Shown piece after piece: positions 1,541 to 50,051 of a stretch of 64,000 bases of DNA. Position 1 is the first letter of the stretch; every line of letters begins with the position of its first letter. Source of the stretch: a virus; UHGV virus genome UHGV-1484817; one strand, 5' to 3'. Made by a program: the position numbers and the translations under genes. The notes under the pieces are model-generated. The model was not told where the DNA came from, made no database searches, and saw only the letters and a list, made by a program, of their open reading frames with translations.

Positions 1541-1557
1541 AATTTATTAGAGCAAAT
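1541..1557. promoter_or_regulatory. C1-type operator (Op51-like)
   Basis: AATTTATTAGAGCAAAT, near-perfect reverse complement of the P1 C1 operator consensus ATTGCTCTAATAAATTT; abuts the pacB stop. Confidence 0.6.
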
Positions 1558-1559
1558 AT

Positions 1560-3044
1560 TCATTCGTTAAGCCATGCCAGAGCTTCATCAACCTGCGCTT
1601 CGTCTTCGACGCTAAGCACTTCATCCTGGGGAACATAATCCGCCAGCATAGCGAAACAATATGTATCCCAATGGTCTGGTGAGTGCAGGTTGAGTTTTTT
1701 CTTCATATCCTCCTTACTCATCACCTTCCATTGACCTGCGGAGTTAATCCCTACAGGGATTTTCGACGCTTCCTCAATAGTTTCATTACCCTTATCCAGT
1801 CTCATACGACCAGATTTTACGGCCTCTGCGGCTTGAACGTTGGCATAAGCACGTTTATCAAAGTACAGGCTCTTATCTTCACGGCTATGCATCTTTTTAC
1901 CCCAGCGTATACGCTGTACGGTAATACCATAATACTCGTACATCAGATCCGCCGTTGCTTTACCCAGGCCATCGCCGTCTATCGCTATGGTGATATTTGG
2001 GAATCGCTCAGGATTACATTCTGCGAAAATTTTGGCGGCAAGCTGCGTTTCTGTAACGTCTGTGTATTCCAGCATTCGATAGTTGATTACACGGCGTTTA
2101 TTTCGCTGGCCGGACACCATCATGATATTGATAACGGACTTATCCCGTCCCGTACCACCAGCAACGTCCACACATGCAAGCCAGCCCCATCCTTTTGCAA
2201 TCTTGACTTTCCGCCGCGTTGCACGTTCAACCTCATCACGTCCAAGAAGGAAGCCATCCTGTGATTTAGGGAATAGGCCGCGTACCTTAATCATGTACAT
2301 AGGGTTATCACGCCCGCCGTACTCCGCCAGCTTCATTTTGATAAATGCTGGCGTTACCAACGGTGATTCCTCACTGTTAAGCGTGATCGCCGTATAAACG
2401 CCATCAGGGTTACCAGGACGCTTGGCCAGTTTATGGTGTGTATCGTAGAAATAGCCGCTTGGGCGTGTAGGCTGTGACAGCAATAAGATGCGGTTATCCT
2501 GTCCGGTAAGAGCACCGGTGATGATACCGAAAGCTCTATCACTGACACCGGAGGCTTCATCGATAATATACAGAAGATGATCTGCGTGTTCACCGGCGAG
2601 AGCTTCTTCACTTCCCAGACGAAAGCCCTTCGGTACTACAGTCCATACACCTTTACCAGTAATCTCATAGAAAGCGGTTTCTGTCAGAACAAAATAATCA
2701 GCAAGCCATGGGAAACGGCTGGTGGCAGTAGCCCAGTTTATCTTGATGTACTTGAATATACCGGTCATTACCTGCTGAATTTTGTTCGCAACGATAATGG
2801 CACGGGCACCTGGATACATGATTATGAACAACATGATCATGATAGAAGTCATGTCTGATTTCCCGGTACCGTGACCAGACGAAACAGATGTCTTGCTACC
2901 CTGTTCCTGCACAGACTCAATAATCAGATCCTGCTGCCAGGTAGGTGTTTTGCCGAACAAAACATCAGCGGCAGCAATCCAGTCATAACGATATAGCGCC
3001 ACCAGCTCGCGCCAACGTGGATCCGTTACGCAACTTCTGGCCAT
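1560..3044 (-). CDS. pacB: Terminase large subunit PacB
   Basis: 494-aa ORF translationally coupled to the upstream pacA-like gene; length and gene order pacA-pacB as in P1. Confidence 0.85.
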
Positions 3045-4237
3045 TAATCATCATCCCCGTATAGCTTGCGGGTAACTTCTTCGTCTTCCTCCTCGTCTTC
3101 GTCCAGGTCTTGTTCCAGCCATGGGTCGTTTGATACACCTTCAGTATCAACATCTCCATAACCGCCTGTATCAACGATATCGGCGATTTCTTCCCTACGC
3201 TGCTCAATCCACAATGCGGCATCGGCGCGGCGGTTGGCGGCCCGTTCTCGCGCAACTTTGTCCAGATCTTCAAGAGAAGGGCCACCGACGGCTGTTTGCC
3301 TTTCCTCATCATCGGTATTGGTCTTAGGAGCACGCAGATCGGCTTTGATTTGCTCCAGCATCAGGGGCGGCACTTTTCCGCCATGCGCCTCGATGAATTC
3401 AGCTGCTTCCAGCACTGACCAGTTATTTTCACGCTTTCGTTCGTATGCCAGCTTAACAATGCCAGCTTGCCCCATAGATAAAGCGTGCTTTTCCGCCTCC
3501 CGGCTTTCTTTTCGATAGTTATTCCGGATGCTGTAAATGGTGTTGATCAGGCTGCTTATCTGCGCGGAACAGCTGTTTAGCATGCTCGCGATACGATATT
3601 CAGGCGGAGTCCCTTCATCATCGTCTTTTTGCTGATCGCGCATTTCCTGCACCAGACGAATACACGTATCCCTGGCATTCTCCAGCATAAGGAGATGAGA
3701 AAGAGACTTTTCCAGAAGAGTGGTTTCCAGAACATCGGCCCCGGACCGACGCAACATAGCGCGCGCAGCCTTCCGCGCTTCAACGTTATCTATCAGGTAA
3801 TCGCCAGCTTCGAATTCAAAGCGTTCACCATCATCATCCAGGGTGTCGCGTTCCAGGCGATCACGTAAGGTCCGGTGGGCGCGGGTGATCACGTCATGAT
3901 CATCAGAACGATCATTTATGCGCTTATTTTGGCGCTTCGCATTCTCGACTGCGGCACTGACAACGGCATTAACCCTTTGTTTTTCCGCTATTTCAGCCGC
4001 AATGTGATCACCTGCATGTTGATCATTAGAGTGATCAATGATCATGCTTTTTAGTGGCTTCCTGACTGGCTTATTTGGCTTGCGGCTGTCCGCTGTCCTG
4101 GTGTCTTCTTTGAAGGCACGGAGATAACGACGTGCAGTATTAGGGTTAAGATTAAACTCGGCGGCATACTGTGCGATGGTGTAACCACCATCTCGCGCCA
4201 GGCGAGCAAAATTCTTCTTGTGATCGTCCCAGGTCAC
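3044..4237 (-). CDS. pacA: Terminase small subunit / pac-recognition protein PacA
   Basis: 397-aa ORF, acidic C-terminus; contains the TGATCA hexamer clusters typical of a P1 pac site within its coding sequence. Confidence 0.85.
3886..4044. other. pac packaging site (two clusters of TGATCA hexamers)
   Basis: TGATCA at 3886, 3897 and at 4005, 4020, 4032, 4039, with a CGATCA at 3909; two clusters about 100 bp apart, the architecture described for P1 pac (Dam-methylatable hexamers). Confidence 0.6.
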
Positions 4238-4322
4238 TTATGCTTCCTTTCGTAAAAACTCTTTTTGACGCGAGGGTAACGAAAGTCACATGTCAAAAGG
4301 CCCGGAACGGGCAAGCAATCAA

Positions 4323-4775
4323 TCAGATACGTGCGGATGTGGCATTACCGTAATGACGGTGCTGACGGGCCACCTTATTGAAAAGTTGACGCGCCATTAC
4401 CCAAGGCTGGTGCTCCCGGCGTTCCTTTTCGTCCTGCGTCATATAGAGTTCGTTCTGGAGTTTTTCATCAAACCGGCGCGGAGCGCGGCTACGGCGAAAG
4501 AATTCAGGATTCAGAGAGTGGATCTGAAATCTACGTGGGCGTGTACTGTCATCAATCAAAACAGACGAATACTTAGACACAGCGATAGCCTTTAAGCGCA
4601 GATAAACATCGCGCTTATCGACATCCAGATGCGGGTATTCCTTTTCAAGAATTGCTGCGAGTTCTTTCGCTGATAGAAGAGATTTAGTGCGGATCATGTA
4701 ATCCGCAATCTCGTACGATGTTATTCGTGAGTGATTTATTTCCATGAAGTGGCGTCCCTGCCAGTTAAGTAACAT
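4323..4775 (-). CDS. lpa: Late promoter activator (Lpa-like)
   Basis: 150-aa ORF directly upstream of pacA with a C1 operator in front, the position of lpa in P1. Confidence 0.65.
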   Translation of the reverse strand: MLLNWQGRHFMEINHSRITSYEIADYMIRTKSLLSAKELAAILEKEYPHLDVDKRDVYLRLKAIAVSKYSSVLIDDSTRPRRFQIHSLNPEFFRRSRAPRRFDEKLQNELYMTQDEKERREHQPWVMARQLFNKVARQHRHYGNATSARI

Positions 4776-4845: not shown

Positions 4846-4862
4846 CAATACATTAGAGCAAT
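4846..4862. promoter_or_regulatory. C1-type operator (Op88-like, partial match)
   Basis: ...ACATTAGAGCAAT...; right half TTAGAGCAAT matches the operator consensus exactly, left half is degenerate; sits upstream of lpa. Confidence 0.45.
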
Positions 4863-7305: not shown

Positions 7306-7557
7306 TTATTTTTTTGGTGCATCCTCGTTCTGATACACCGGATCGCTCCCTTTTGGCAACTGGAGGCTTAACTGCCGGTAGTGCCGTAGCCGTTCCATGA
7401 AATAGGCGCGCAGGTTTTCCGGTTGCTCACGGGCCACCTGCTCTGCAATCACAGGTATATTCAGCCGTTCTTTGTAAGCAACGCCGCTGGCGGCAAGGTC
7501 TACGTTCACCTTGTCTCGCTCTTCCTGGCTTTTAGCTGCTATATTTCGATCTGACAC
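7306..7557 (-). CDS. hot: DNA polymerase III theta-subunit homologue (Hot)
   Basis: 83-aa ORF with [21 protein letters not shown]...REQPE motif characteristic of HolE/theta. Confidence 0.8.
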
Positions 7558-7589
7558 AAGAAACCTCCAGGAGTTAGTGGATCAGGCAC

Positions 7590-7940
7590 ATGCACAATAA
7601 CGTTCTCAATGTTAGCCGTTCAATTCAGACAATCAGAGACTGCACCAGTGTGGTGGCATCAATCCCATTGCGAAACAGCATAGACGAACTGCAAATTCGT
7701 GTATTGAATCCGAATCAGGCTAATAAGCAATTGCGCTTTATTTTGACGCTGAAAAGTGAAACAGAGGGGATAAAGCACAGCGTAAAAGTGTTTTCTGAGG
7801 CCATTCTGCTTAATGGGAAGCTCCGGCATCTGGTAAGGCCAGAACGTCAATATCCTGACGTCCTGGCGCGTGAAAAAGACCTTCTTTCTGAAGTTCAGGA
7901 TAGGGTGATCGATTTCGTCAAATGCTATCCCCTGCATTGA
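7590..7940 (+). CDS. Hypothetical protein
   Basis: 116-aa plus-strand ORF in the gap between minus-strand genes; no recognisable motif. Confidence 0.3.
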   Translation: MHNNVLNVSRSIQTIRDCTSVVASIPLRNSIDELQIRVLNPNQANKQLRFILTLKSETEGIKHSVKVFSEAILLNGKLRHLVRPERQYPDVLAREKDLLSEVQDRVIDFVKCYPLH

Positions 7941-8209
7941 GGGCAGGTGTTCCCTTCCGCAAAGTAGGGAAAATTGCTATCAAGTTCATCACACCATCTG
8001 CGATGGTCGTAGCACCAAAACGCCTCCCACGGTGCACGGAAATACTTCATCCACCAGGACACTCGATCAGGTATATCTGCTGGTGGCAGTTCTTCTGGCA
8101 ATAATTTGCCTGATAATTCCCTTTCCGCCCGCGACAGCATTTTTTTGAGGCTCGCGTTCTCTTTTTCAAGCTCATCTACGCGCACCTGTAATTCAGCTTT
8201 CGTTGGCAT
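7925..8209 (-). CDS. Hypothetical protein with C-terminal CxxC
   Basis: ORF 7925-8290; start moved to the internal Met (MPTKAELQ...) to limit overlap with the upstream gene; coiled-coil segment. Confidence 0.4.
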   Translation of the reverse strand: MPTKAELQVRVDELEKENASLKKMLSRAERELSGKLLPEELPPADIPDRVSWWMKYFRAPWEAFWCYDHRRWCDELDSNFPYFAEGNTCPQCRG

Positions 8210-9275
8210 GGTCCACCTCATGCTTTTCAGCCACCAGCGGCAATAAAGCCCTGGCCATCTTATGAACCAATAGTGCATCAATAATGCCAAGCGTATGCCC
8301 CGGCTTAATGTTTAATGCCGCCTCAAGGCGACACCTTTCCAGGCCACTTTTCTCGGCTTGTTTATGATGATCTGGTGTAATAACGTCGCCCAAAACACGG
8401 CTAATTCTTTCTCGTAATTGCTGGGTGCCAGCACACTTGATCGCTGTATCGTGGAGACGGTTAACCAGTTCGCGATAAACATGCGGCTTAATTCGGATAC
8501 GTTCACCGGTGACGCCCTTTCCTGGTGCTGGCACCGAACTATCCGGAATATCCGGATAGTTGCCAGCCAGTCTACGCAAAACAGCCTTAACAGCCTCAAT
8601 ACGGTCATCATCGCAACTTTCCAGCGTATCTATGCGATCGAGCATGATGATGGCGTTATCAATATCAGGATTGCCGGTCCACTCATTACCGCGATTGGAT
8701 TCGGCAGTCTGGTTGCCGCGTACTGGTTGATTCTCGGCTTTACCCTGTCTGTCGTTGCTGCATGAATGCCCTTCCAGCCAGACCAGTGCTTGTCGCATGA
8801 AATACGCAATATGCTTGCCGTGGTAATCGTCTTCATCGATGTGAAAAGCGATACTGCGGATATATTCAATTGCGTTTTCAATGGCCTCTAACGCTATCGG
8901 TGCTGGCGGAGTGGTATATAGTTTTCGACATTTGTTTATCCAACCGGCATGGTCAGGCGTGTCTGTAAAGCGCAAATCGTCTTCGTAGCACTCACGACTT
9001 CGTTCTTTCCATTCCGTCCACGGAACACCGCTATTCCAGGTGGGACGAGTGCAGGACTGATACAGAACAGGCTCTGCTTCCAGTGATGCCAGTGCAATCC
9101 GTGCCAGCTCACGCACAACTTCCGGCGGCGCGTAACGGTCATTCAGGTCATCCCACAGGCGTAGCATGTTATCGCTACCAGGGTGAACATCCTCGTTAGT
9201 TCCGGCCAGCGCACTAATAACCTCATCGGCTGCTTCAATAATTTTCTGTGCCTGTTCTCTGGTAATAGTGGTCAT
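8193..9275 (-). CDS. Hypothetical protein, MTTIT paralogue family (360 aa)
   Basis: N-terminus MTTITREQAQKI... and motifs ELARIALA.LE, YxxPPAP shared with the ORFs at 9708-10103 and 10311-10775. Confidence 0.6.
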   Translation of the reverse strand: MTTITREQAQKIIEAADEVISALAGTNEDVHPGSDNMLRLWDDLNDRYAPPEVVRELARIALASLEAEPVLYQSCTRPTWNSGVPWTEWKERSRECYEDDLRFTDTPDHAGWINKCRKLYTTPPAPIALEAIENAIEYIRSIAFHIDEDDYHGKHIAYFMRQALVWLEGHSCSNDRQGKAENQPVRGNQTAESNRGNEWTGNPDIDNAIIMLDRIDTLESCDDDRIEAVKAVLRRLAGNYPDIPDSSVPAPGKGVTGERIRIKPHVYRELVNRLHDTAIKCAGTQQLRERISRVLGDVITPDHHKQAEKSGLERCRLEAALNIKPGHTLGIIDALLVHKMARALLPLVAEKHEVDHANES

Positions 9276-9285
9276 TTGTTATGCC

Positions 9286-9483
9286 TCAATACACGAAATC
9301 TGTTTTAAATTCATGGTTACATTCTGGACAGCATGTTTCGTAACCTTTTATTTCTTCACATGCCTGTTTAGCTCCAGAAAACTCCCAGAAATCAGCATCA
9401 CAAAGCAGATCGAAATTGTGACCGCATTTTGGGCATTCGGTATCAAGTGACAGATTCCAGTAAGCAGTGGTGTTTTTATCCAT
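9286..9483 (-). CDS. Small zinc-ribbon protein
   Basis: CPKCGH ... CCPECNH motifs; start set at internal MDKNTTAYW. Confidence 0.45.
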   Translation of the reverse strand: MDKNTTAYWNLSLDTECPKCGHNFDLLCDADFWEFSGAKQACEEIKGYETCCPECNHEFKTDFVY

Positions 9484-9484
9484 A

Positions 9485-9706
9485 TCAGTCTCCTTTACCC
9501 GCTGCTTTCTCCTGCTCTTTAGCAAGCCGCTCCGCTTCTCTGAAATCCCAGTCAACTCGACGTGCTATATCAATTGCAGAACGCACGGTACGTTCAATTA
9601 GCGTATCCAGATTATCGATTGTCATTGCCATATCTGGATTGCGAGATAAAATCTCCGCCCTCTGAATCTGCCAGTTGTTGCAGGTTTCAAGTAATGAGTT
9701 AGCCAT
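9485..9706 (-). CDS. Small hypothetical protein
   Basis: ORF 9485-9748 trimmed to the MANSLLETC... start, adjacent to the next gene stop. Confidence 0.4.
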   Translation of the reverse strand: MANSLLETCNNWQIQRAEILSRNPDMAMTIDNLDTLIERTVRSAIDIARRVDWDFREAERLAKEQEKAAGKGD

Positions 9707-9707
9707 A

Positions 9708-10103
9708 TCACTTTCCTTTCCCATGAAGCATAGCCGCGCGGCAGGCATTCCAGCCTCTCACCTCTGCAATAGCGGCAACAGCATCAACCGCGTACATGCT
9801 AAGAGGATTAGGCATTGGTTTTTCTTCCGGTACTACTGGCGCTGGAGGGGCGGCGTAAATACCCTCTATCACTAAATGTTTGCGCTCAAAATCATCTGGC
9901 TCTCGATGATATACGTAACTCCAATCACCAAGGTTATCATTGCGCCTGCAACGGAAACCTATCGGCTCGACTTCCAGCGCTGCCAGAGCAATTCGTGCCA
10001 GTTCTTCCGCTTCTTCTGCTGGCAGTACAACGTTGCTACCAGGTCCGTATGTTTCGCGCCACTGCTTGATTGTCAGCAGTCGCTCTTTGGTTATAGTGGT
10101 CAT
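9708..10103 (-). CDS. Hypothetical protein, MTTIT paralogue family (131 aa)
   Basis: MTTITKERLLTI..., EEAEELARIALAALEVEP, YAAPPAPVVPEE; paralogue of 8193-9275. Confidence 0.55.
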   Translation of the reverse strand: MTTITKERLLTIKQWRETYGPGSNVVLPAEEAEELARIALAALEVEPIGFRCRRNDNLGDWSYVYHREPDDFERKHLVIEGIYAAPPAPVVPEEKPMPNPLSMYAVDAVAAIAEVRGWNACRAAMLHGKGK

Positions 10104-10309
10104 TTGTTAATCCTCAAAACTTTATGCCCGGGCGCAAAAGCACGCGTTTTGTCTTTGCTTATTCGCCAGCCATCCTTGCGCGCCTCTTTTGCACAGCCAG
10201 CCCATGACGTACCGATATACTCACCGAAGTCTGGCACTGGATATACACCTTCCGTACACTGGCGGCAGTCACAATAGAGATGCATTGTGTAACTTGCGGC
10301 AATAGCCAT
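10100..10309 (-). CDS. Small Cys-rich hypothetical protein
   Basis: 69-aa ORF tightly packed between neighbours (4-nt overlap). Confidence 0.4.
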   Translation of the reverse strand: MAIAASYTMHLYCDCRQCTEGVYPVPDFGEYIGTSWAGCAKEARKDGWRISKDKTRAFAPGHKVLRINK

Positions 10310-10310
10310 A

Positions 10311-10775
10311 TCACCCTCCTTTACCCTGAAGCATGGCGTCGCTCCGCTCTATACTATCCAGCGCGATTCGCAGTGCCTGAATTGTGGTAGTGCTATCGTT
10401 TGGGGCTATTCCATATCGCTCGAATACAGCTAAATGGTTGCGCATAATCTCAGGCGTAAGCTCTTTGTAAGCATAAGCAAGAGGCTCTGATGCATTATCC
10501 GGCACAACCGACGCAGGCGCGGCAGCATAAACAGGAATAACGTCCGCTTGCTCTTTATTGCTTTCATCCGTTAAAGCCCAGAATAATTTCCCGGCCGGAT
10601 GTTTGAAAATATAAGCAACTGGTTCTGCACTATCAGCTTCGCGCCGCTTCTGTAGCTCTGCTGCCATTGCTCTCACGACTTCAACTGGTGCCCTTGCAGC
10701 AAACTCTATGTTGGTGATCAGCTCATTAAGATATTGCTCGCTGGGATACTGTTTCTTATTGGTAATAGTGATCAT
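10311..10775 (-). CDS. Hypothetical protein, MTTIT paralogue family (154 aa)
   Basis: MITITNKK..., YAAAPASVVPD, C-terminal AMLQGKGG resembling AMLHGKGK of 9708-10103. Confidence 0.55.
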   Translation of the reverse strand: MITITNKKQYPSEQYLNELITNIEFAARAPVEVVRAMAAELQKRREADSAEPVAYIFKHPAGKLFWALTDESNKEQADVIPVYAAAPASVVPDNASEPLAYAYKELTPEIMRNHLAVFERYGIAPNDSTTTIQALRIALDSIERSDAMLQGKGG

Positions 10776-11287
10776 GCCGCGTTTCCTTCTTTCTTATTAA
10801 CAATTACACCGTCATATATTTCATTAAGGTGCCCTCTCAACTCCATGCGCCTTAATGCAGATAACATGTAATCGCATTCAACCTGCTTATTTCCAGTAAA
10901 TGGCTTATCGTCAGGATTACCCCAACAGCAATTACCCTTGGGCCACCCATGTACTTTCCGTACTCTTCCGTTAACAACGTGAAGTAATCCCCAGCCAGGT
11001 GGTAAATCCTCAATTGAAATAATTCCCGGCTCACTAATAAAGAATCGCCAGTCGCCCATTCCAAGAGACGGATTTTTACGGAAACGCTTTTTTCTATCTG
11101 CCAACAAGTCAGCACGAGAACACTTCGCCTCTATCAAGCATGATGCTGAACTTCTGAATCCCATAGCATCTGGCTGTTCTCCGGTGCTGGTTACAGCTAT
11201 AAAGCGGTCATGAAAGCAAACCTTGAACCCGTTGCGCTTAAGGAACTTGTACGCAATCTGACAGAGTTCGCGGTGTGTTAACGCCAT
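10772..11287 (-). CDS. Putative PD-(D/E)xK-type nuclease-like protein
   Basis: ORF trimmed to MALTHREL...; contains D...IEAK-like motif; assignment tentative. Confidence 0.45.
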   Translation of the reverse strand: MALTHRELCQIAYKFLKRNGFKVCFHDRFIAVTSTGEQPDAMGFRSSASCLIEAKCSRADLLADRKKRFRKNPSLGMGDWRFFISEPGIISIEDLPPGWGLLHVVNGRVRKVHGWPKGNCCWGNPDDKPFTGNKQVECDYMLSALRRMELRGHLNEIYDGVIVNKKEGNAA

Positions 11288-11655
11288 CTCACTCTCCTTT
11301 AGTGCGCAGATAACAGTGGTTTTTCCAGCGGTTTTGCGCCGCGCTGGGCTTTTTGCAAAAACCACAATCCATCATCCCGTAATATTTCATCAACCCCATC
11401 CGTCGGTTGCTGAGTCTCACCCACTGCCAGACGCCAGGAGCGTTTCTACGAACTAACAGAATCTTTGCTTTACGGTTTTTCATCGCTTTGCTCTCCTGCG
11501 TCTCTTTGCTGCTCGTCGTGCCGCTGCAATACCGGTATGGCGGCGCTTTGGTGCCGGGATGATGTTGTCAGCCATCAGGACATGTGGCTTTGCAATTAGC
11601 GCAGAAGCCCAAAAACGAGTCGGGTACGGTAACAAGCCGATACATGCCACACGCA

Positions 11656-12408
11656 TTACTCACCTCCTTTGATGCGAATGCCTGCGGCGCGGATTGCAGC
11701 GATGACTTCAGAAACTTTGTATGCCATTACCGTTTGGTAATCATCGTGAAAATCTGTTCGATGAAGCATGCTGCTACGTTCCGGGAGCGATATTTCCCGA
11801 GCATCCAGTTCCTTAACGCGTTCCTCCAGTTCGTAGACCCTGCATTGTTCTCTATCATCAATCAGATATAACCCAAGACATTCGCTTTCTACCCAACCGC
11901 CAAAATCATGATCGTAACGCTCACATGAAAACTCACCGTCACCGTCCTTTGTTGGAATGGTGTAACTATCTAATGGGCCACCATATGTCGGCACATTTCC
12001 CAATGTTGGATGCTCAATCCACATGAAAAATGCACGTCCGGTTATTGGGCAAATATCTGGCCGCCATTGGTTACGAACAGCCTTGGTTTCGGATAATTCT
12101 TCAGCGTGTTGTTTTACTTCCTCAAGCTCAACTCTCAGCTTCCCTACCGTTAGCGCAATATCCTCGTTCTCCTGATCGCGGCGTTTTATGTATTGCTGGT
12201 TTCTTTCCCGTTCATCCAGCAGCGCCAGCACGGTTTCTGGTCCGGTCAGAAATTTGAAGGCGTTGAGCGCATCAATATCCACACCGTAATCTTTAAGTTC
12301 CTGTTCACTTAACAAATCATCATCAGCTGGCAACATTAACAGGCGTTCCATTGCTGGAATTGCACGTTCCGCCGCCTCACGCAGTGCCTGGTAATTAATT
12401 TCGCTCAC
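11656..12408 (-). CDS. Ead/Ea22-like family protein (250 aa)
   Basis: N-terminal INYQALREAAERA motif typical of Ead/Ea22-like prophage proteins; paralogue of the next gene. Confidence 0.6.
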   Translation of the reverse strand: MSEINYQALREAAERAIPAMERLLMLPADDDLLSEQELKDYGVDIDALNAFKFLTGPETVLALLDERERNQQYIKRRDQENEDIALTVGKLRVELEEVKQHAEELSETKAVRNQWRPDICPITGRAFFMWIEHPTLGNVPTYGGPLDSYTIPTKDGDGEFSCERYDHDFGGWVESECLGLYLIDDREQCRVYELEERVKELDAREISLPERSSMLHRTDFHDDYQTVMAYKVSEVIAAIRAAGIRIKGGE

Positions 12409-13070
12409 TGGTTGCCTCCTTTGCGAAGCTGGGCAGCAAAGTCAACTAACCACTCAGTCATTTCAACCTTCCCTACCAGGTCTGAACCAGGGTGCATACA
12501 GCAATCACTCTGCGCCGCTTTGAAATCCTTATACTCATATTCTTGGGCCACCAGATTTTTTGCAGCTTCTATAGCAGCATCCACCCCCTGCGCCCGCACT
12601 TCAGACAGGAAAGCATCGGTAGCTGGAGTTTCGCTGTGGTGCAGGGCATCGTTGATAATCATTGCAGCAACTCCGGCCTGCCCTGCATCCGTGACCGACA
12701 CATGCTCAAGAGTTACGGCCATTGCGTGTTTCAGCCCAGCGTTCTCCGCCACCAGCGCCGCGAGATTAGTCTCAAGCTCTGCAATTCGACACATAGCATC
12801 AATATTTGTGTCCTCCAGGCGCTTAATTTCATCCAGTAGAGCCAGCACAACTTTGGGTGGGATAGCCGCGATATAACGGGCATTGGCACCAGCGTTTCTC
12901 TGTCCATCAATGCCAGGCCAGTCAATAAAGTATCCGCAATGCCTACCCTCAGACGTATGCGCAGGATAAGTGCCGTTTTGCCCCGGCAAAATATATGCTA
13001 CCCATTCATCTTGCGTTGCCTGTTCCGCCGCCTCGCGCAGTACCTGATAGTCAATTGTCATTCTCGCCAT
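12405..13070 (-). CDS. Ead/Ea22-like family protein (221 aa)
   Basis: N-terminal IDYQVLREAAEQA motif; 4-nt overlap with its paralogue. Confidence 0.6.
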   Translation of the reverse strand: MARMTIDYQVLREAAEQATQDEWVAYILPGQNGTYPAHTSEGRHCGYFIDWPGIDGQRNAGANARYIAAIPPKVVLALLDEIKRLEDTNIDAMCRIAELETNLAALVAENAGLKHAMAVTLEHVSVTDAGQAGVAAMIINDALHHSETPATDAFLSEVRAQGVDAAIEAAKNLVAQEYEYKDFKAAQSDCCMHPGSDLVGKVEMTEWLVDFAAQLRKGGNQ

Positions 13071-13702
13071 CCTTCACAGTTGTAATCACTACAGCCTTCA
13101 AAATCATATGGGCTGTACTGCCAGGTGATTTTTCCGCAATGCGGACAATTCCAACGCACCTTCCCGCTTCGCGACTTCTTTCTTCTGTTCTGCTCTTTCA
13201 ACCAGTCAGGCATGACCAAACCTGCGCCCTGAACCATTGTTCTGCGGTTAAAGTTATTGATATTGAACGTCCGGCGCTTTGCTGCATCAGCAATGGAAAA
13301 TGGCAACCAAACTATTCCTGGTTCGTTTTTGTTGGCGACGCTAAAGATGGTCGCTTTACTGAAGTCATCTGTTGGCAATCCACCGTGTTGAAGCCAGTAA
13401 ACATCGTTGCCGTTCCAGCTACCTTTTTTGTAGGCCACATACGCAGTGCAATCTGACTCAATCAGGCTTTCTGTAGGGATGTACTGGCAATCAACGTGCC
13501 ACACAGCCATTGCATCCACACTATCGGCACAAACAGGCTGATCGATATCTCGCCCACAACTCCAGGCTTTTTGGGCTTCTTCCAGCGTGTAAACATGAGC
13601 GCGATCGATATCAGAACTGTAACCATTGCCGTTATGGCAATGGAATGAGGCGTTATTACCCACAGTTTCACGCAAGCACATCATGTAAAAGCGGTTATTC
13701 AC
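13058..13702 (-). CDS. Cys-rich hypothetical protein
   Basis: 214-aa ORF with many Cys/His and a C-terminal CPHCG ... CEGW cluster. Confidence 0.5.
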   Translation of the reverse strand: MNNRFYMMCLRETVGNNASFHCHNGNGYSSDIDRAHVYTLEEAQKAWSCGRDIDQPVCADSVDAMAVWHVDCQYIPTESLIESDCTAYVAYKKGSWNGNDVYWLQHGGLPTDDFSKATIFSVANKNEPGIVWLPFSIADAAKRRTFNINNFNRRTMVQGAGLVMPDWLKEQNRRKKSRSGKVRWNCPHCGKITWQYSPYDFEGCSDYNCEGWRE

Positions 13703-13979
13703 TGGTTGCCTCCGCTTCCCACGTTTTCAGACTTTCACCACAGAACGGGCAAAATGAAACTCGAATAGGCGATTTAGAAAATTCACCAGACCGCAGCATG
13801 ATCAGGTCTTGTGAATGAATTAATTCATGGTTATAGATTTTGTATTTCAGCAGACCTTTTCGCGTCGTGTATTCAGCGTCATGCTCCAGGGATTGTGCCA
13901 ACGCCGCGCACGGTTCTATCTTGTTGCCATTAATTTGGCATTTTGACTCACTCACTGGTTGCCCCCTGAATACGCTCAA
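13695..13979 (-). CDS. Small zinc-ribbon-like hypothetical protein
   Basis: 94-aa ORF with C-terminal CPFCG motif. Confidence 0.4.
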   Translation of the reverse strand: MSVFRGQPVSESKCQINGNKIEPCAALAQSLEHDAEYTTRKGLLKYKIYNHELIHSQDLIMLRSGEFSKSPIRVSFCPFCGESLKTWEAEATSE

Positions 13980-14688
13980 ACTCGATTACCCACACCCAGG
14001 GATTAGCGTTCCAGCTTTCTTCACCATAGATGGATTCCCACAGGCGCTGGAACGCAACCTTGGCCATTGCGAAATCTCCCTTGGGAGTTAGGAATGTTCC
14101 CGGGTGATCAGGAAGCAAACTTCCAGCAGGCTGAACGCCCTCATCCCTTGCATCGCATTCGCTGATATCGTTCAACCGCTCAACGCGCACGTTGGTAATT
14201 TCCAACAGAATGCGTGATGCCCATCGCGGCATGTGAATTGATGGACGCCACCCACCATCAAACTTTTCATTCACAGTGTGAGGTTTCCAGTCGGCATCAT
14301 CGGGTATCGACCATAAACCGTAATCACCAGGCTTTTGCTCACAACTGGCCCGATAAATCCTTGCTGCGTTCTTCTCATCGCCACGACAAAGGTTGTCGTT
14401 CCAGTCCACACTGCAACCATCTTCATTGCCTAATATCGCCCATGTTTCACGAACCCAAATTCGATCGCCGACGATACCAAAGGGGCAATTGAAAACACTG
14501 CTTACACCATCAGCCCCGTACCACTGAAAACCTGCACCAATTTTTCTAACCATCACTGGTGCTTCTGGACCAACTTCCGCAGGCTGATTTTTCATTATCC
14601 GCCGCGTCTGCGTTTTCCTTCCTTCGAGGATGGCCCGGACCATCTCATCGTTGAAAATCATGCCGCGCTCTTTCACTTCGCCTTTCAT
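13948..14688 (-). CDS. ASCH-domain-like prophage protein
   Basis: MIFNDEMVRAILEGRKTQTRR motif common to a widespread prophage protein family; start may be the internal MIFND. Confidence 0.6.
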   Translation of the reverse strand: MKGEVKERGMIFNDEMVRAILEGRKTQTRRIMKNQPAEVGPEAPVMVRKIGAGFQWYGADGVSSVFNCPFGIVGDRIWVRETWAILGNEDGCSVDWNDNLCRGDEKNAARIYRASCEQKPGDYGLWSIPDDADWKPHTVNEKFDGGWRPSIHMPRWASRILLEITNVRVERLNDISECDARDEGVQPAGSLLPDHPGTFLTPKGDFAMAKVAFQRLWESIYGEESWNANPWVWVIEFERIQGATSE

Positions 14689-14866: not shown

Positions 14867-14882
14867 AGATTTATTAGAGCAA
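14867..14882. promoter_or_regulatory. C1-type operator
   Basis: GATTTATTAGAGCAAT, reverse-orientation match to the operator consensus, upstream of the minus-strand block starting at 14688. Confidence 0.55.
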
Positions 14883-15389
14883 TTATTGTTGATGAAGAAG
14901 CGCATTTTCATATTCCCTGACCATTAACGTAAGTACGCCGTGACTCCTGAAAACACGCGCCACTTCAATCTTATCTTCCAGCGCGAACGCAATTTTACTT
15001 AGACCAATTTTCTTCAGGAGATCAATCTTTGCAGGGCCGTCATTTCTGTCATCGGTGGCAGGACGCATAGATAGCAAAGGCTCAGCCCCATTTGTTACGT
15101 GCTTACGCAACCAAGCTCGTGTTTTATCCCTGGCTATCTCACAGCGCCCGGTTACAAACCAGAGCGTGTAAATGCTGGACAACTGGCGCACCATATCAAT
15201 AACTGGAGTGATGGGAGCATCAGTGTCACAGGCAAGGTTAAACTCGTTCCAGTGCTCTGTTAATGCACCTTTGCCAGGTGGTGGAAGTAAATGCAGCCTG
15301 TCTTCCGTTGCCTCTGATATCGTCCCATCAATATCTACTATGACGATGTACGGACGTTCCTGGTGTGCGTGTTTATTGAAAATACTCAA
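14883..15389 (-). CDS. HAD-superfamily phosphatase-like protein
   Basis: 168-aa ORF with IVDIDGTI (DxDGT) motif near the N-terminus. Confidence 0.6.
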   Translation of the reverse strand: MSIFNKHAHQERPYIVIVDIDGTISEATEDRLHLLPPPGKGALTEHWNEFNLACDTDAPITPVIDMVRQLSSIYTLWFVTGRCEIARDKTRAWLRKHVTNGAEPLLSMRPATDDRNDGPAKIDLLKKIGLSKIAFALEDKIEVARVFRSHGVLTLMVREYENALLHQQ

Positions 15390-16957: not shown

Positions 16958-16974
16958 GATTGCTCTAATAAAAA
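16958..16974. promoter_or_regulatory. C1-type operator (forward orientation)
   Basis: ATTGCTCTAATAAAAAA, 14/17 match to consensus. Confidence 0.5.
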
Positions 16975-17010
16975 AACGTGATGAGTGTACATCACGTTTT
17001 AAAAATATGG

Positions 17011-17027
17011 AATTATTAGAGCAATAT
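17011..17027. promoter_or_regulatory. C1-type operator (reverse orientation)
   Basis: AATTATTAGAGCAATAT; forms an inverted pair with the site at 16958-16974, about 53 bp apart. Confidence 0.5.
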
Positions 17028-19585: not shown

Positions 19586-19748
19586 TCATTTCAGCGATTA
19601 CAGGGTCCACTACAGCATCTGTTTCCTGTTCATTACGCGGCATGACCGATGCCAGCGACTCATAATTAACCTTGGATGACACGATTATTCTCCCGATGTT
19701 AAAGTGCGCTACCACAAAGAGCGTAAATGCACTAATTAATTTATTATT

Positions 19749-20327
19749 TTAAGCAGCATGCAACCACTTATCGCCGTTCAATACATGCTCAATAGCCTCA
19801 CCCTTTTTAAGACTTATGTATTCCAGGATGGCGGTAATCGCTTGTTCTGCACCATACGCAAGAACAACGTAGTAGCCTTCCTCTCTAAGCCTGCGCATCC
19901 AGGCGATCTGCTCTTTCGTCGGGGCTTTACCATTTGGTTCTTTAAGCTCAATTCGCATGCCGTGATAAATACCGCATGCTTTATCGAGACTCATGTCCGG
20001 ATAACCTTTTTTCTGCCCTTCAGCCTTCATTTTCCCGGCGGTTGCTTTTGAACGCTTCCCTCCGTTAGGCGTTGCATGCAACAGCTCATAGATGTCAGGG
20101 TGCTTGCGTTCGAAGTAATCAAAAATGAAAACCTGCTCGAAGTGCTCGCAATTTCCGTCGCGCAGGTCTGGGTTCTTTGCCAGTGCTGCAAGTGCCTTCG
20201 CATGTGGAGAAACTTCTTTTACCGGCGCAAGCGATAAGAATGGATCCTTTTTGGTTTTTGGCCTGGACCGCCCCTTATTTCGACGCTCACTAAAAGCCTG
20301 AAACTCTTCCTCAGTAAAGCGCAACAT
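19749..20327 (-). CDS. VRR-NUC domain nuclease-like protein
   Basis: 192-aa ORF with GYPDMSL ... IELKEPNG motifs (PD-(D/E)xK core). Confidence 0.55.
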   Translation of the reverse strand: MLRFTEEEFQAFSERRNKGRSRPKTKKDPFLSLAPVKEVSPHAKALAALAKNPDLRDGNCEHFEQVFIFDYFERKHPDIYELLHATPNGGKRSKATAGKMKAEGQKKGYPDMSLDKACGIYHGMRIELKEPNGKAPTKEQIAWMRRLREEGYYVVLAYGAEQAITAILEYISLKKGEAIEHVLNGDKWLHAA

Positions 20328-20631: not shown

Positions 20632-20648
20632 AATTGCACTAATAATTT
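20632..20648. promoter_or_regulatory. C1-type operator-like site in a divergent promoter region
   Basis: ATTGCACTAATAATTTT, 14/17 match to consensus, in the AT-rich gap between minus- and plus-strand gene blocks. Confidence 0.35.
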
Positions 20649-20721
20649 TCTTTTATTGAGTTAAATATTCAACAAATGACTAGCGATAGAATCACCATCA
20701 TCTATTTCTGGCAGGCTGACT

Positions 20722-25519: not shown

Positions 25520-26518
25520 TTATCCGTTACCGCGCGACGGTTTCTGCGTGACAAACGTCTCAAGCATCTTTTCCGCAATTGCCGACCAGGTGTGACACTG
25601 GACCTTTTCAGCATTTTTCACGCGATCAACGCGAGCAATAACCTCATCCCAATCAATCCGCGACTTGATAACCATATGGTTCACCAAAGCCAGGCGATCT
25701 GGCGGAAGGCAATCGGGAGGCGTTAATACCAACGCCCCGCACATTGCCGCCTCAAGTACAGTTAATCCAAGGCTTTCGGGATGCGTAACGATAAACACGT
25801 CACTCTTACGCAATTCAGCTGCAAATTCGGTTGCTGGCACCGGCGTCCGTCTGTATGGAGTTACCGAAATATTCCCCGGATCAATGGTAACCAATCCGTC
25901 ATCAGTCAACGTTCTGGCCTCATACGGAACGGTCAGACGCTGAAGGTTCATAAGGATACTTAAGGAGTGATCAAAACCACTAACATCAAATGCAGCGTGG
26001 TCTACAAAAATACGCAGAACATCGTCTGTTTTGGTTTCCAGATGGAACAGATCCTGATTCGCTGCCCATCCAACATGTTTGTTAAAACGATTATGACGCT
26101 CTAACCTGCCTGGATTATCCAGGTACCGCCAGGTATCATCGCGGACAGTAAAAGTAATATCGACTGGTGCCGAATCCAGCATAGAACCGTCGTATACCTG
26201 GGCTACCCATCCAGTGAATCGACGACGCAGTTGCACGCCTATTTCCCTGGGCACCGTAGTAAAATACCGCAATCCTGGCGCTAAAATGGCTTTCGCAGAA
26301 CACGAGGTCGCAGCGGTCAACACAGCTTCAACATAATCCTCCGGGCTTTCGACGCCGGGGGAATATGGACGATGGTATTGCAATGTTACCCCTGCCTCAC
26401 TAAAGGCGCAGGCCAGGTTGTAAGCCCACATTTCCGTATATGTTTTCACATCACTGATAGCTTCAAATTTTCGCCCAATGATCAGGATGTTCATCGGCTT
26501 TTCCTCATTCCATTGCAT
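25520..26518 (-). CDS. Glycosyltransferase family-1-like protein
   Basis: C-terminal ESLGLTVLEAAMCGALVLTP motif (GT-B E-x7-E); start ATG overlaps the ban stop by 1 nt (TAATG). Confidence 0.55.
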   Translation of the reverse strand: MQWNEEKPMNILIIGRKFEAISDVKTYTEMWAYNLACAFSEAGVTLQYHRPYSPGVESPEDYVEAVLTAATSCSAKAILAPGLRYFTTVPREIGVQLRRRFTGWVAQVYDGSMLDSAPVDITFTVRDDTWRYLDNPGRLERHNRFNKHVGWAANQDLFHLETKTDDVLRIFVDHAAFDVSGFDHSLSILMNLQRLTVPYEARTLTDDGLVTIDPGNISVTPYRRTPVPATEFAAELRKSDVFIVTHPESLGLTVLEAAMCGALVLTPPDCLPPDRLALVNHMVIKSRIDWDEVIARVDRVKNAEKVQCHTWSAIAEKMLETFVTQKPSRGNG

Positions 26519-28270: not shown

Positions 28271-29098
28271 TTATTTCACCGGAACAAACGGAACAGCGGT
28301 ATTACTGGTCATATACTGCGGTAATGTACCGTTCCATTTGTTGATCGCTTCCAACTCCATAACACCGGGGTTCTGGCGCAGAGCTTCACCACGTAAACGA
28401 ATGGCATCAGCTTCGGCCTGGGCTTTTGTGCGAATAGCATCAGCCTGTCCGGCAGCTTCCGCGCGCAGCATGTTGGCCTCTGCTTCACGTTGTTTGACCT
28501 CTTGCTCGCGTTGCAGGGTTTTTTGGTTTGCCGTGACTTTGGCGTTAATACTGTCAATAACTGTTGGCGGGTATTCTGGCTTACCTACATAAGAGAGGCT
28601 CATCACCTGAATGCCGATTGGCGTCATTTCTTCCTGAATGTCTTTAAGGGCTGCATCAAGCAATTCGGATTTGCCACCGTCGATAAATTTGTCGGTTGTC
28701 ATTTTGCTGGCTAACCGGTTCAGAGCATCTGCAACCTTCTGGCGTAGATCGGTATCAGTAATATCATCTACACCTTTGCGATAGGTCTGAAATACCGTTG
28801 TGACTTTTGCTGGATCAACCTTGTAGGCTACGCCGATGTGGTAACCAATGGTTGTTCCGTCGCTCATCTGGAAGCTGAACGGCTCATCGTATGTCTTCAT
28901 TTGCTTAAAGGTCGGGAAGATATAAACTTCAGTATTCAAGCCTGTCCAGTAGCGACCAACGCCAACTACTTCACCGATACCTTTATCATCCCCCAGCTTA
29001 TTTACTTTGATCCCTACGTTACCTGGCTCTACCCGATCGCATCCGGTCAGACATAAAGAACCCAAAATAATCGCTGCACTAATCAACGTTTTTTTCAT
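28271..29098 (-). CDS. SPFH/band-7-like lipoprotein
   Basis: Signal peptide with lipobox LTGC; prohibitin-like core and Ala/Glu-rich coiled coil. Confidence 0.65.
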   Translation of the reverse strand: MKKTLISAAIILGSLCLTGCDRVEPGNVGIKVNKLGDDKGIGEVVGVGRYWTGLNTEVYIFPTFKQMKTYDEPFSFQMSDGTTIGYHIGVAYKVDPAKVTTVFQTYRKGVDDITDTDLRQKVADALNRLASKMTTDKFIDGGKSELLDAALKDIQEEMTPIGIQVMSLSYVGKPEYPPTVIDSINAKVTANQKTLQREQEVKQREAEANMLRAEAAGQADAIRTKAQAEADAIRLRGEALRQNPGVMELEAINKWNGTLPQYMTSNTAVPFVPVK

Positions 29099-29315
29099 TA
29101 ATTAATTTCCTGGTTTTTTCACGAAAAAAGACTACTGCGAAAGCTGGGTAAATGAGCGCGAGAAGGACTCCCAACAATACAAGTATTGTGCTGTTAGATG
29201 AGATCATATTTGGCAAAAGCCAAACATACAGAACCAGTGACACAATCAAACAGAGGACGGCATAAATATATAACCGCACCCATAGCGTTCGACATTTGTT
29301 CGGATTGTTCTGCAT
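29079..29315 (-). CDS. Small two-TM membrane protein
   Basis: 78-aa hydrophobic ORF directly upstream of the lipoprotein gene. Confidence 0.45.
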   Translation of the reverse strand: MQNNPNKCRTLWVRLYIYAVLCLIVSLVLYVWLLPNMISSNSTILVLLGVLLALIYPAFAVVFFREKTRKLINEKNVD

Positions 29316-31050: not shown

Positions 31051-31078
31051 ATTACACTAATAAATTTATTAGAGCAAT
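31051..31078. promoter_or_regulatory. Overlapping bipartite C1 operator around a perfect palindrome
   Basis: ATTACACTAATAAATTTATTAGAGCAAT: 15/17 forward match overlapping a 17/17 reverse match, centred on CTAATAAATTTATTAG; overlaps the dmt stop codon and precedes the tRNA leader. Confidence 0.65.
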
Positions 31079-47044: not shown

Positions 47045-47063
47045 GAGTCATCCCTTGTATTTT

Positions 47064-47090
47064 AAAGCTCCTTCGGGAGCTTTTTTTATA
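47064..47090 (+). terminator. Rho-independent terminator
   Basis: AAAGCTCC-TTCG-GGAGCTTT followed by TTTTTT. Confidence 0.7.
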
Positions 47091-47215
47091 ACTATTTTAT
47101 ATAAACATGCATCGATAACATTGTCTGGAGTTTTATGTTAGATTATTAATGTTCTAATAAACTACAATTATTGAGGTAGATGTTTGTGCCTGTACTGTTA
47201 AAGGGGGACTCTAAA

Positions 47216-47812
47216 ATGGCTGTGATTCCAATGTCGTACTCCCCGGGTACTGTCGCTCGTCGATTTTCGATCCTGGACGGAGTTACCATCCAGGGTGTGC
47301 TTTACCAGGTTATATGGGATTCCAAAACCCCATTTGCAGCTGTAATAGAGGCTGCGCCTTCTGTTATCGATGGTGATATGCGGCATAAGGTTGTCGCTAC
47401 TCTTGAACTTCAACGTCGCCCGCAGCTTGAAGGCGTACTGGTAAGGAAGTTCTGGGAGGATAGCGATGTTGCCCAGATTGAAGGTATCGTGGTTGATGGA
47501 ACTGTCCGGGATGTCGGTTTAGCTACTTTTGTTTACGAAACCGTAGCCTCAAAAGCTGGTGTTGTTTTGCTCAGTGATAATGAGCAATACGAAGGTGGAA
47601 AAGCTCTTTGGCAACATATCGCCCGTCGCTCTTCCGAGCTAAAAGTGTTTATCCTCGACACCGATGCCGCTCAGTATTACCCGTTTGACGGCGAACGTGT
47701 TTGCTATGACGGGGTAAGTATTCCTGAATCCGAGATATGGAGTGAACACCCAGATCGAAGTAAGCATGGGGTTGTTCTGGTCGCTGAATCCATAATTGGA
47801 AATGCGGCATAG
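47216..47812 (+). CDS. Hypothetical protein
   Basis: Start at ATG 47216 behind AGGGGGA; ORF track gives the longer 47180 start. Confidence 0.45.
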   Translation: MAVIPMSYSPGTVARRFSILDGVTIQGVLYQVIWDSKTPFAAVIEAAPSVIDGDMRHKVVATLELQRRPQLEGVLVRKFWEDSDVAQIEGIVVDGTVRDVGLATFVYETVASKAGVVLLSDNEQYEGGKALWQHIARRSSELKVFILDTDAAQYYPFDGERVCYDGVSIPESEIWSEHPDRSKHGVVLVAESIIGNAA

Positions 47813-47994
47813 CAGTAAAAAATTCCTTGCTCCTTAAAATGGGAGAGGGTTAATCTACGTATGCTAAGCATAGATATGGCCTCAGATTAATGTTAAGCGT
47901 CTTGCAGGACGCGTAATGTTATCTGGGGCTTTCTTCTATCTGCTTTTCGGGTAATGCCTGAAGCAGATAGCCTCAAGCACCCGCAACGATTGTA

Positions 47995-48321
47995 TCAATG
48001 TCTGGCTTTTTTTCTATAGAAATCACCTGGAAGGGTGAATATCCACATCAGAAGAAATGTAGCAGCAAACATGATCCCTAATGGCCAGACCGCGCCAAAG
48101 AAAATCCATACTAAGATCTCCTCTGCTCGTTCTTTGCGGTCGATATCGACAAGCATTTTTCGGCTGATCATGTATACACAGAAGCCAATACAAACATATC
48201 CTGCAAAAGCGATCGCTAACTGTAAAAAATCAGATTGCATCTCCGACCTCAAACTGAAAACGCCAGGTGACTCCAGATTAGAGCAATCTATCACCCTCTG
48301 AATCCTGCCGGTATACCCCAT
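47995..48321 (-). CDS. Small membrane protein
   Basis: 108-aa ORF with 2-3 hydrophobic helices, downstream of repL. Confidence 0.4.
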   Translation of the reverse strand: MGYTGRIQRVIDCSNLESPGVFSLRSEMQSDFLQLAIAFAGYVCIGFCVYMISRKMLVDIDRKERAEEILVWIFFGAVWPLGIMFAATFLLMWIFTLPGDFYRKKARH

Positions 48322-49136
48322 TGTTCGTTATCTTTATTTTTGGCTAAAACCGCATTAAGAGCTTCGTTTACCGTCATGCAATGCGGCAGATTATCGAAGT
48401 TTGATACCCCGCCAATATCAGGAGAACGCTTGTTCTTCAGGTAAGCATATTTCCGCGCTGCCGCCTCTACTTTCTGCTTGAACTCATGTTTTTGAGCGCG
48501 TTTTTTGGATAACCGCAGATTGTCAGCCTTTGCTTTTGCCTCAGCGATCCATGAAGTCAATTTTTTGAGTCTGGTCGTTCCGGCACCGCCGGAAACTGAT
48601 CTTTTTGTTTTTTTAACTTGTGACTTCTTATTCTTTATTGCCACGTCATCCTGACAGGGGGAGGGGGTATCATTTTGACATGGGGGTGTGGATAAAAAAT
48701 TAAATAAAGCCAATGTCTTAGCGAGAACAGCTTTAACCTTGGTTGCCGCTGAAGAGATCTTTAATTTGCTTTCAATCAGCGCATTTTTGGCTTGTTGTGC
48801 GAAGGCCAAAAAGGATGGTGTAAACCGGTACAGGTTAGCACGACGTTCATGGTGATCGCCGATAACAATCTCTACAGACAGAATTCCTTTGTTTACAGCT
48901 TCACGGAATGCACGAACGACGGTTGATTGGCTATAACCAGTTTCTGCCGCGATCAGGCGGTGAGGCTTGTGAATGAAGTATTCACTGGTTGTTGCCGCTA
49001 GATTTGCACATTGCGACAGGATATGCCCGGCGCTACGAGATAGACCGGAGTGTGTTACAAAGCAGGCCAATTCATAGCCAGAAAAAGTAAAATCGCTCAT
49101 CGTTATACAGCTCAGGAAAGTGACTTTAGCCAGCAT
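48291..49136 (-). CDS. repL: Lytic replication initiator RepL
   Basis: Downstream of kilA in a C1-controlled operon as in P1; N-terminal helix-turn-helix-like region, basic C-terminus. Real start may be the internal MSDFTFSG. Confidence 0.7.
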   Translation of the reverse strand: MLAKVTFLSCITMSDFTFSGYELACFVTHSGLSRSAGHILSQCANLAATTSEYFIHKPHRLIAAETGYSQSTVVRAFREAVNKGILSVEIVIGDHHERRANLYRFTPSFLAFAQQAKNALIESKLKISSAATKVKAVLAKTLALFNFLSTPPCQNDTPSPCQDDVAIKNKKSQVKKTKRSVSGGAGTTRLKKLTSWIAEAKAKADNLRLSKKRAQKHEFKQKVEAAARKYAYLKNKRSPDIGGVSNFDNLPHCMTVNEALNAVLAKNKDNEQWGIPAGFRG

Positions 49137-49165
49137 TACAATGCTGGTGGTTCTTACTACGTCTG

Positions 49166-49966
49166 TTAGCGCGTTGCCGCGACAGGTACCAGCACACCAG
49201 CATCAAGCAATCGCTTCATCAGCCACTGCTGACCTTTGCCGGTTATACGAGTCGTGAAAGAAATCCTGCTTCCATTGCTTGTATCGATCACGGTTTCTTT
49301 AAGGGTGAAATACCCACGGGATATGTATTCTTGTTTGGGGACGTTCCTGCGTTCACCGGTTGCGATCAGAATTCCGTTATCACGCAACCAGGTGAAGAGA
49401 TAGTTTTGGCCCAGGCCGAGCACTTTGGCATAGTTGCCGATTAGAACCCCGCTGGCGGTAGCAACGCGTTCGGCGAATTCGACTTTAGGCGCATCCATAA
49501 GCATTTTTTGCTCCAGCCGTTGCTTTTGCTCTGCCAGGTCGGCAGCCAAACGGAGAGCTTCAGGGAGACTCTGCGGAATAGCAGGTTGTAATCTTCCGGC
49601 TCGATAGTCGATAAATGTCTGGTTTACCTTCAGCCGAAACGCGGGAGAAATCCAGCCTGCGTACTCCACAGCGAGCAATTCATGGGCAAACGTACCGCCG
49701 CCACGGCCTTCGAACGAAACTATGCAATTCTGCATAGTTTCTTTTTCAAGCTCTTCGATAAGCTGTTTGGCTGACAGCGTTCTTAGCCATTGAGCTGGCG
49801 CTTTATGGGCACCGAGTCCGCTCGCTCTGTGTAGAGCATTAAGGTTGTAACGGCCAGCGCGGTCGGTCGTAATTTCAACACCACAAATAACAGGCAGAGT
49901 GGTTGAAGGATCGACATTTTGATGAAGGTTTGATATATTCATATCCGCATTGAATGTTTGTTGCAT
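49166..49966 (-). CDS. kilA: KilA protein (KilAC-type C-terminus)
   Basis: 266-aa ORF; C-terminal block ...PEALRLAADLAEQKQRLEQK...PKVEFAERV... shared with the Ant proteins; C1 operator upstream. Confidence 0.75.
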   Translation of the reverse strand: MQQTFNADMNISNLHQNVDPSTTLPVICGVEITTDRAGRYNLNALHRASGLGAHKAPAQWLRTLSAKQLIEELEKETMQNCIVSFEGRGGGTFAHELLAVEYAGWISPAFRLKVNQTFIDYRAGRLQPAIPQSLPEALRLAADLAEQKQRLEQKMLMDAPKVEFAERVATASGVLIGNYAKVLGLGQNYLFTWLRDNGILIATGERRNVPKQEYISRGYFTLKETVIDTSNGSRISFTTRITGKGQQWLMKRLLDAGVLVPVAATR

Positions 49967-50034
49967 TTTTTCTCCAAATTTGCATCAACCTTCAATCACC
50001 AGCTCGAAAAGGTGATTCTTTGCACTTAGAAAAC

Positions 50035-50051
50035 GAAATTTATTAGAGCAA
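50035..50051. promoter_or_regulatory. C1-type operator (Op53-like) for the kilA-repL operon
   Basis: AAATTTATTAGAGCAAA, 16/17 reverse-orientation match. Confidence 0.6.

Follow-up and report, generated by a model that had tools for sequence, protein, structure and literature searches.

The repressor C1 of bacteriophage P1 binds dispersed operators, of which 22 with the asymmetric consensus ATTGCTCTAATAAATTT are reported, and keeps lytic functions, repL and lpa among them, repressed (PMC8546580). In P1, C1 binding is strengthened by Lxc, C1 is inactivated by Coi and by the Ant1/Ant2 complex, and the synthesis of Ant is in turn blocked by the C4 RNA (PMC8546580). Here, we analyzed a 64,000-nucleotide stretch of the virus genome UHGV-1484817 (the window, meaning this whole stretch), for which a sequence-only reading had proposed a network of at least ten dispersed C1-type operators. 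Our analyses make it very likely that the motif copies in the window are operators of C1, the immC repressor of P1, which are asymmetric, 17 bp long, and dispersed, and that they form an occlusion regulon in a P1-like phage-plasmid, with C1 binding and repression in this element being what we infer from the sequence.

Operator motifs in the window compared with P1

Megablast placed the window in the Punavirus group (P1, P7, RCS47, JL22, SJ46), and judged by its sequence it is a P1-like phage-plasmid, about 60% of one. Window positions 1562-63476 correspond to P1 AF234172 positions 93204-37095, i.e. in reverse orientation to the P1 reference, at 93-99% DNA identity over most of the length, and a tblastn search with 51 P1 proteins recovered the expected P1 gene order from pacB to R. 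A scan of both strands for ATTGCTCTAATAAATTT with up to three mismatches returned 12 sites where 0.29 were expected from dinucleotide-preserving shuffles, 0 of 100 of which reached 12, and the consensus derived from these 12 sites was the published one itself (PMC8546580), with motif positions 3, 5, and 7-11 invariant throughout and Obana as the sole perfect match (Table 1). A position-weight matrix built from 17 C1 operators, those that the P1 reference annotates within the regions retrieved, scored the same sites at 18.6-27 bits, the next-best match in the window reaching 13.6 bits. Such a matrix scan was among the checks that the sequence-only reading had called for, and it gave 12 sites at ≥18 bits against 0.05 expected per window (first-order Markov shuffles); a 50-kb control from the E. 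coli chromosome contained none at ≤3 mismatches and none at ≥14 bits. The enrichment over shuffles together with this control rules out that the matches occur at chance frequency. The core 9-mer TGCWCTAAT occurs 13 times versus 1.29 expected, and 11 of these copies lie inside intact operators, the remaining two being found at 48277-48285, in a truncated operator, and at 29075, in coding sequence. The latter was rejected as an operator and attributed to chance, as it lies inside the gene of an SPFH lipoprotein and has flanks unlike those of an operator. Weaker matrix matches at 26512 (13.6 bits, at the ban/dbn junction), 47148 (13.4 bits, 16 bp before the pmgF-like open reading frame (ORF), with a C-to-T change in the core), and 51770 (11.3 bits) were rejected as fitting chance, because 3.1 matches at ≥12 bits are expected per shuffle and two were seen beyond the real set. 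At the scale of a whole replicon, the same matrix finds 22 sites at ≥14 bits in the complete relative JL22 (99.6 kb), including the operator of the second immI module described below and a cluster around c1/coi and cre; JL22 also carries c1, coi, and lxc.

When each operator annotated in P1 as a C1 protein-binding site ('phage repressor C1'; AF234172 / NC_005856) was aligned to the window with 60 bp of flank per side, 11 of the 12 sites fell at the positions of annotated operators, bearing out their earlier designation as C1-type, and one (1540-1556) was without P1 counterpart. Nine are identical to P1, Oppp carries one substitution, and the Oc4 site, which was placed via an alignment of the immI leader, is diverged at the same aligned position; the flanks of the other ten are 97-100% identical to P1 over ±60 bp. 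The coordinates previously assigned to the sites were right to within 1-3 bases, and the match at about 51723, which had been ranked as weaker, is real (51720-51736), but Oppp at 19726-19742 had been missed. The P1 interval syntenic with the window has 12 annotated operators, of which 11 are intact here and one, Orlf, is cut. The comparison with P1 also upheld the assignments of lpa, the uhr-hrdC-dmt operon, kilA-repL, and two immI modules, whereas the operator-headed blocks formerly taken for unknown genes proved to be the named P1 operons pmgT, pmgR-pmgS-pap, pmgN-ppp-pmgQ, pmgL/26, and ban, because their downstream genes are as in P1.

The window shares with the P1 immC regulon the 17-bp asymmetric consensus, the positions of 11 sites, the identical sequence of most overlapping promoters, the bivalent ban arrangement with its 11-bp offset of inverted copies, and the targets lpa, pmgT, pmgR, pmgN-ppp, pmgL/26, ban, dmt, kilA-repL, and c4-icd-ant. 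It differs in the truncated Orlf, in the diverged Oc4-position site, in an extra operator fronting a second immI module absent from P1 and P7, and in the cargo of three C1-controlled units, namely below pmgT, in the ban operon where P1 has tci, and where P1 has rlf. Because 11 of the 12 sites have orthologues among the named P1 operators and the remaining one lies in a module recorded in the literature, the operator network is, on this sequence comparison, already known: it is textbook P1 biology, with sites inherited almost unchanged. For annotation, the network establishes what the element is and how it is oriented, predicts that c1 follows directly beyond the left window edge, and reveals non-P1 cargo in C1-controlled units (below OpmgT, an Ead/Ea22-type chain; within the ban operon, an SPFH lipoprotein pair). 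Only one point goes further than P1: next to c1 stands a second, operator-headed immI module, and this module is common in P1-like plasmids.

Obanab (31051-31078) consists of inverted 17-mers at an 11-bp offset with a common palindromic AAATTT, as in a bivalent operator, and is identical to P1; it overlaps P1ban (31077-31049) and the 3' end of dmt and heads an operon of tRNAs, accessory genes, ban (27882-26521), and dbn. Oppp has a degenerate inverted partner at 19737-19753 (CTTAAAATAATAAATTA, 11 bits), which resembles the weak Oc1b of P1 (ACGAAAATAATAGATTT). As the offset of this partner, 11 bp, is that of Oban and Oc1ab, Oppp may also be bivalent, although it is annotated as monovalent in P1.

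Proposed repression and the position of c1

Promoter positions were obtained by transferring the annotated P1 promoters, which match in sequence, to the window; a generic sigma-70 consensus scan of the window gave fewer matches than shuffles. Plpa, P1pmgT, P2pmgT, PpmgR, P1ban, Pdmt, and PkilA are base-for-base identical to P1, operators included. All 12 sites lie within control regions, those adjoining a protein-coding gene at 15-180 bp upstream of the start codon, and the operators are placed over the -35 element (Plpa, PpmgR, P1ban, P51a-like), over the -10 element (PkilA), or just downstream of the promoter (OpmgRb, Oppp), which makes promoter occlusion the best-supported mechanism. In a lysogen, C1 encoded just off the left window edge would bind each operator with the aid of the corepressor Lxc, encoded outside the window, and, as each operator overlaps or abuts a sigma-70 promoter, bound C1 would block transcription. 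The units shut off in this manner would be lpa and hence all late genes, the kilA-repL lytic replicon, the ban helicase operon, uhr-hrdC-dmt, several early pmg operons, and the C1-sensitive promoter of each c4-icd-ant module. Once Coi or Ant proteins had inactivated C1, all sites would be derepressed together.

The 17-mer might instead be a promoter element common to early promoters, a TTGCTC-type -35 followed by an A/T-rich spacer, that is recognized by RNA polymerase and not by a repressor, and the annotated -35 TTGCTC does lie inside the operator at P2pmgT, PpmgR, and P1ban. However, the position and orientation of the motif vary, from the -35 at Plpa, PpmgR, and P1ban to the -10 at PkilA, OpmgRb and Oppp lie downstream of the -10 on the opposite strand, and the C1-binding annotation of the P1 record agrees with the reported binding of C1 to 22 operators (PMC8546580), so that we give this explanation almost no credence.

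A repressor gene had not been seen in the window and was presumed to lie outside it. This is in agreement with tblastn searches, in which homologues of C1 (P1, RCS47) and Coi were not found in the window (best E-values 5 and 0.6), and with the gene order of relatives. In five relatives with the same pacB-module junction (RCS47, JL22, p25-07233_3, an E. fergusonii plasmid, and p6CP1-IncY-mcr-3.5), c1 ends 164 bp past the equivalent of window base 1 and is convergent with the second ant, and it is intact in four of them; in a sixth relative, vB_EcoM-673R5, c1 is annotated in fragments. The C1 protein of RCS47 differs from that of P1 c1.100 at 2 of 283 residues. From this synteny, we infer that c1 lies just beyond the left window edge. 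In the plasmid and complete E. coli genome collections, the best matches spanning most of the query were 96-98.5% identical, none reaching 99%.

The absence of c1 from the window would also suit a defective P1-derived plasmid without a working C1, in which the sites are inherited relics conserved through recent divergence alone. Defective P1 derivatives exist (PMC6906374), and the flanks of the ten sites identical or near-identical to P1 are as conserved as the sites (97-100%), so that the conservation of those ten sites alone is no proof of constraint. On the other hand, lpa, pacAB, repL, kilA, ban, and the structural genes are all intact in the window, c1 stands beside the same junction in the five relatives above, and both operators in diverged sequence, those of the two immI modules, keep the core TGCTCTAAT, whereas their flanks are 68-73% identical to each other. 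Because operators in a diverged context keep their core, motif placement varies, and the lytic genes are intact, both alternatives are unlikely, inherited relics being a very improbable explanation and a promoter element one more improbable still, and we prefer to read the sites as operators bound by C1. Against this reading weigh the destruction of the P1 operator Orlf in this element, where P1 homology stops at a recombination junction after the 11th base of the operator; the divergence of the Oc4-position site (3 mismatches, G at position 1), which makes C1 affinity there uncertain; and the location of c1, coi, and lxc outside the window, leaving synteny alone to argue for an intact repressor.

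Table 1. Operators, immI features, and selected genes of the window (mismatches are to ATTGCTCTAATAAATTT)
Feature	Position	Strand	Remarks
C1-type operator	1540-1556	-	TTTGCTCTAATAAATTG; 2 mismatches; heads second immI-like module
Olpa (former Op94)	4846-4862	-	3 mismatches; overlaps -35 of Plpa (4848-4821)
OpmgT (former Op88)	14867-14883	-	1 mismatch; overlaps P1pmgT and P2pmgT
OpmgRb (former Op86b)	16959-16975	+	3 mismatches; between PpmgR and pmgR start codon (16944)
OpmgRa (former Op86a)	17009-17025	-	3 mismatches; overlaps -35 of PpmgR (17024-16996); controls pmgR-pmgS-pap
Oppp (former Op83)	19726-19742	+	AATGCACTAATTAATTT; 3 mismatches; one substitution vs P1
O26 (former Op82)	20633-20649	+	2 mismatches; divergent pmgL / gene 26 control region
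Obanb	31051-31067	+	2 mismatches; half of bivalent Obanab (former Op72ab)
Obana	31062-31078	-	0 mismatches; half of bivalent Obanab (former Op72ab)
Odmt (former Op68)	34584-34600	-	1 mismatch; abuts -35 of Pdmt (34584-34555); controls uhr-hrdC-dmt (34512-31069)
OrepL (former Op53)	50036-50052	-	1 mismatch; overlaps -10 of PkilA (50070-50042)
Oc4-position operator (former Op51)	51720-51736	-	GTTGCTCTAATTATTTT; 3 mismatches; canonical immI module
Orlf relic (former Op55)	48271-48287	-	ATTGCTCTAAT, then unrelated ctggag
lpa	4775-4323		Late-promoter activator gene; downstream of Olpa
pmgT-like gene	14688-13948		Downstream of OpmgT; then co-directional ORF chain to about 7306
pmgN	start 19682		Below Oppp; then pmgO-pmgP-ppp-pmgQ
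pmgL	start 20575	-	Flanks O26; pmgL-pmgM diverges from gene 26
Gene 26	start 20722	+	Flanks O26
kilA	49966-49166		Under OrepL
repL/oriL	49136-48291		Under OrepL
Second immI, P51a equivalent		-	TTGTGT-17-TACATT promoter-like pair; begins in last three bases of operator 1540-1556; aligned with C1-sensitive P51a of P1
Second immI, P51b equivalent		-	TTGCGC-17-TATGCT; aligned with P51b
Second immI, isrK-like leader	1465-1387	-	Rfam isrK (Hfq-binding sRNA family), 59 bits, gathering score 50
Second immI, C4 antisense RNA	1342-1255	-	Rfam RF01695, 76.7 bits, gathering score 45; full length
Second immI, C4 target a2	1250-1244	-	TTGGAAC; complementary to GUUCCAA in C4
Second immI, C4 target b2	1219-1212	-	GCAAAAGG; complementary to C4 CCUUUUGC; overlaps GGAGG before icd GTG start (1200)
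Second immI, icd-like ORF	1200-979	-	73 codons; 80% identical to P1 Icd
Second immI, ant-like ORF	from 982, past left window edge	-	Overlaps icd stop; ORF6N and KilAC (ANT) domains
Canonical immI, isrK-like leader	51650-51572	-	Rfam isrK, 58 bits, gathering score 50
Canonical immI, C4 RNA	51527-51440	-	Identical to second-module C4
Canonical immI, icd	51385-51164	-	
Canonical immI, ant1/2	51167-50130	-	
Rep protein	37130-38014		42% identical to P1 RepA; weak Rep3 domain matches
T5orf172-domain ORF	38307-39116		Between rep and parA, within segment 36923-39183
sok antitoxin RNA	47982-47808		Rfam, 97 bits
pmgF-like ORF		+	210 aa; N-terminus 45% identical to PmgF

The additional immI-type module beside pacB

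An 'ant' insertion between pacB and c1 has been recorded in pTZ20_1P and RCS47, where it was described as 'two short hypothetical orfs and ant' (PMC6906374); in the literature searched, we found no description of a C1 operator or C4 RNA in this insertion and no functional characterization of a second immI module. Window positions 1-1561 are unmatched in P1 at that position and matched in RCS47 and JL22, and from their sequence they are a full second immI-type module between pacB and c1, with ant cut by the window edge. The module reads on the minus strand from the pacB stop (1560) and has the leader C4 RNA, the a2/b2 targets, and the layout for icd-ant translational coupling of a P1-type immI; the upstream a1 copy is degenerate (TTGAGAC). 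The order pacB-operator-c4-icd-ant-c1 is the same in RCS47, JL22, and pTZ20_1P. Window positions 1-1640 are 94.5% identical in DNA to RCS47 and 99.3% to JL22, and the module is found, at ≥80% coverage of this stretch, in 300 records of the plasmid collection PLSDB. The operator at 1540-1556 is kept in RCS47, JL22, p25-07233_3, and other relatives, its core TTGCTCTAAT and 3' AATTG being retained in every relative inspected.

Both modules have in common with P1 immI an operator over a P51a-like -35, a P51b-like promoter, a C4 RNA (RF01695, 76.7 bits), a2/b2 targets complementary to C4 with b2 over the icd ribosome-binding site, and a 73-codon icd overlapping the start of ant. The C4 recognition elements, on the other hand, are GUUCCAA / CCUUUUGC here versus CUGUCAA / UCACUAAC in P1, and the C4 RNA is similar to its counterpart in phage D6 (c4 region 94% identical). 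The second module further differs from P1 immI in its location between pacB and c1 and in the ORF6N domain of its Ant, which is about 52-55% identical to Ant1.

The two modules have diverged unevenly. About 300 bp around c4 (1147-1446 versus 51332-51631) are 95-100% identical, as are, without any difference, the a2/b2 targets, whereas identity falls to 50-73% in the operator/promoter parts and the ant genes. Such a near-identical c4 region in otherwise diverged modules suggests gene conversion, or selection for one C4 specificity. We therefore raise, as a tentative proposal, that the operator at 1540-1556 may mark a functional second immI circuit next to c1, with a single C4 specificity controlling two different antirepressors and with gene conversion or selection keeping the c4 copies identical. 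If so, the second module may broaden the signals or repressors to which the element responds, and a large subgroup of P1-like plasmids, with about 300 records in PLSDB, would share a variant of the P1 immunity circuitry that has not been described before.

Non-P1 segments and cargo

Five segments of the window are replaced relative to P1 (7235-13994, 28252-29341, 36923-39183, 47086-48277, and 51358-53942), and lxr, pmgV, tciA, rlfA/B, and simB/C were absent from the window among the 51 P1 proteins searched by tblastn. The low identity of the Rep protein to P1 RepA (Table 1) indicates a plasmid replicon other than that of P1. Below OpmgT, about 16 co-directional, mostly overlapping ORFs (7306-14688, minus strand) replace the P1 pmgU/pmgV-upf-lxr region; in Pfam and PHROG comparisons, two are Ead/Ea22-like and the rest fall into PHROGs without an assigned function. 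If no internal terminator interrupts the chain, C1 would control this cargo. In the ban operon, P1 tciA/B/C give way to two genes (28271-29315, minus strand), one for a membrane protein of 78 aa and one for a lipoprotein of 275 aa that has an SPFH/Band 7 domain (E = 1e-30); both are on the strand of ban and downstream of the bivalent Oban. At 47086-48287, a 108-aa ORF, a sok RNA, and a pmgF-like ORF occupy the place of rlfA/rlfB. The P1 sim (superimmunity) genes are swapped for an AT-rich block at 51883-53841 (GC 35% over 52001-54000) with three plus-strand ORFs (116, 158, and 344 aa); the 344-aa ORF has a weak SH3_3 match.

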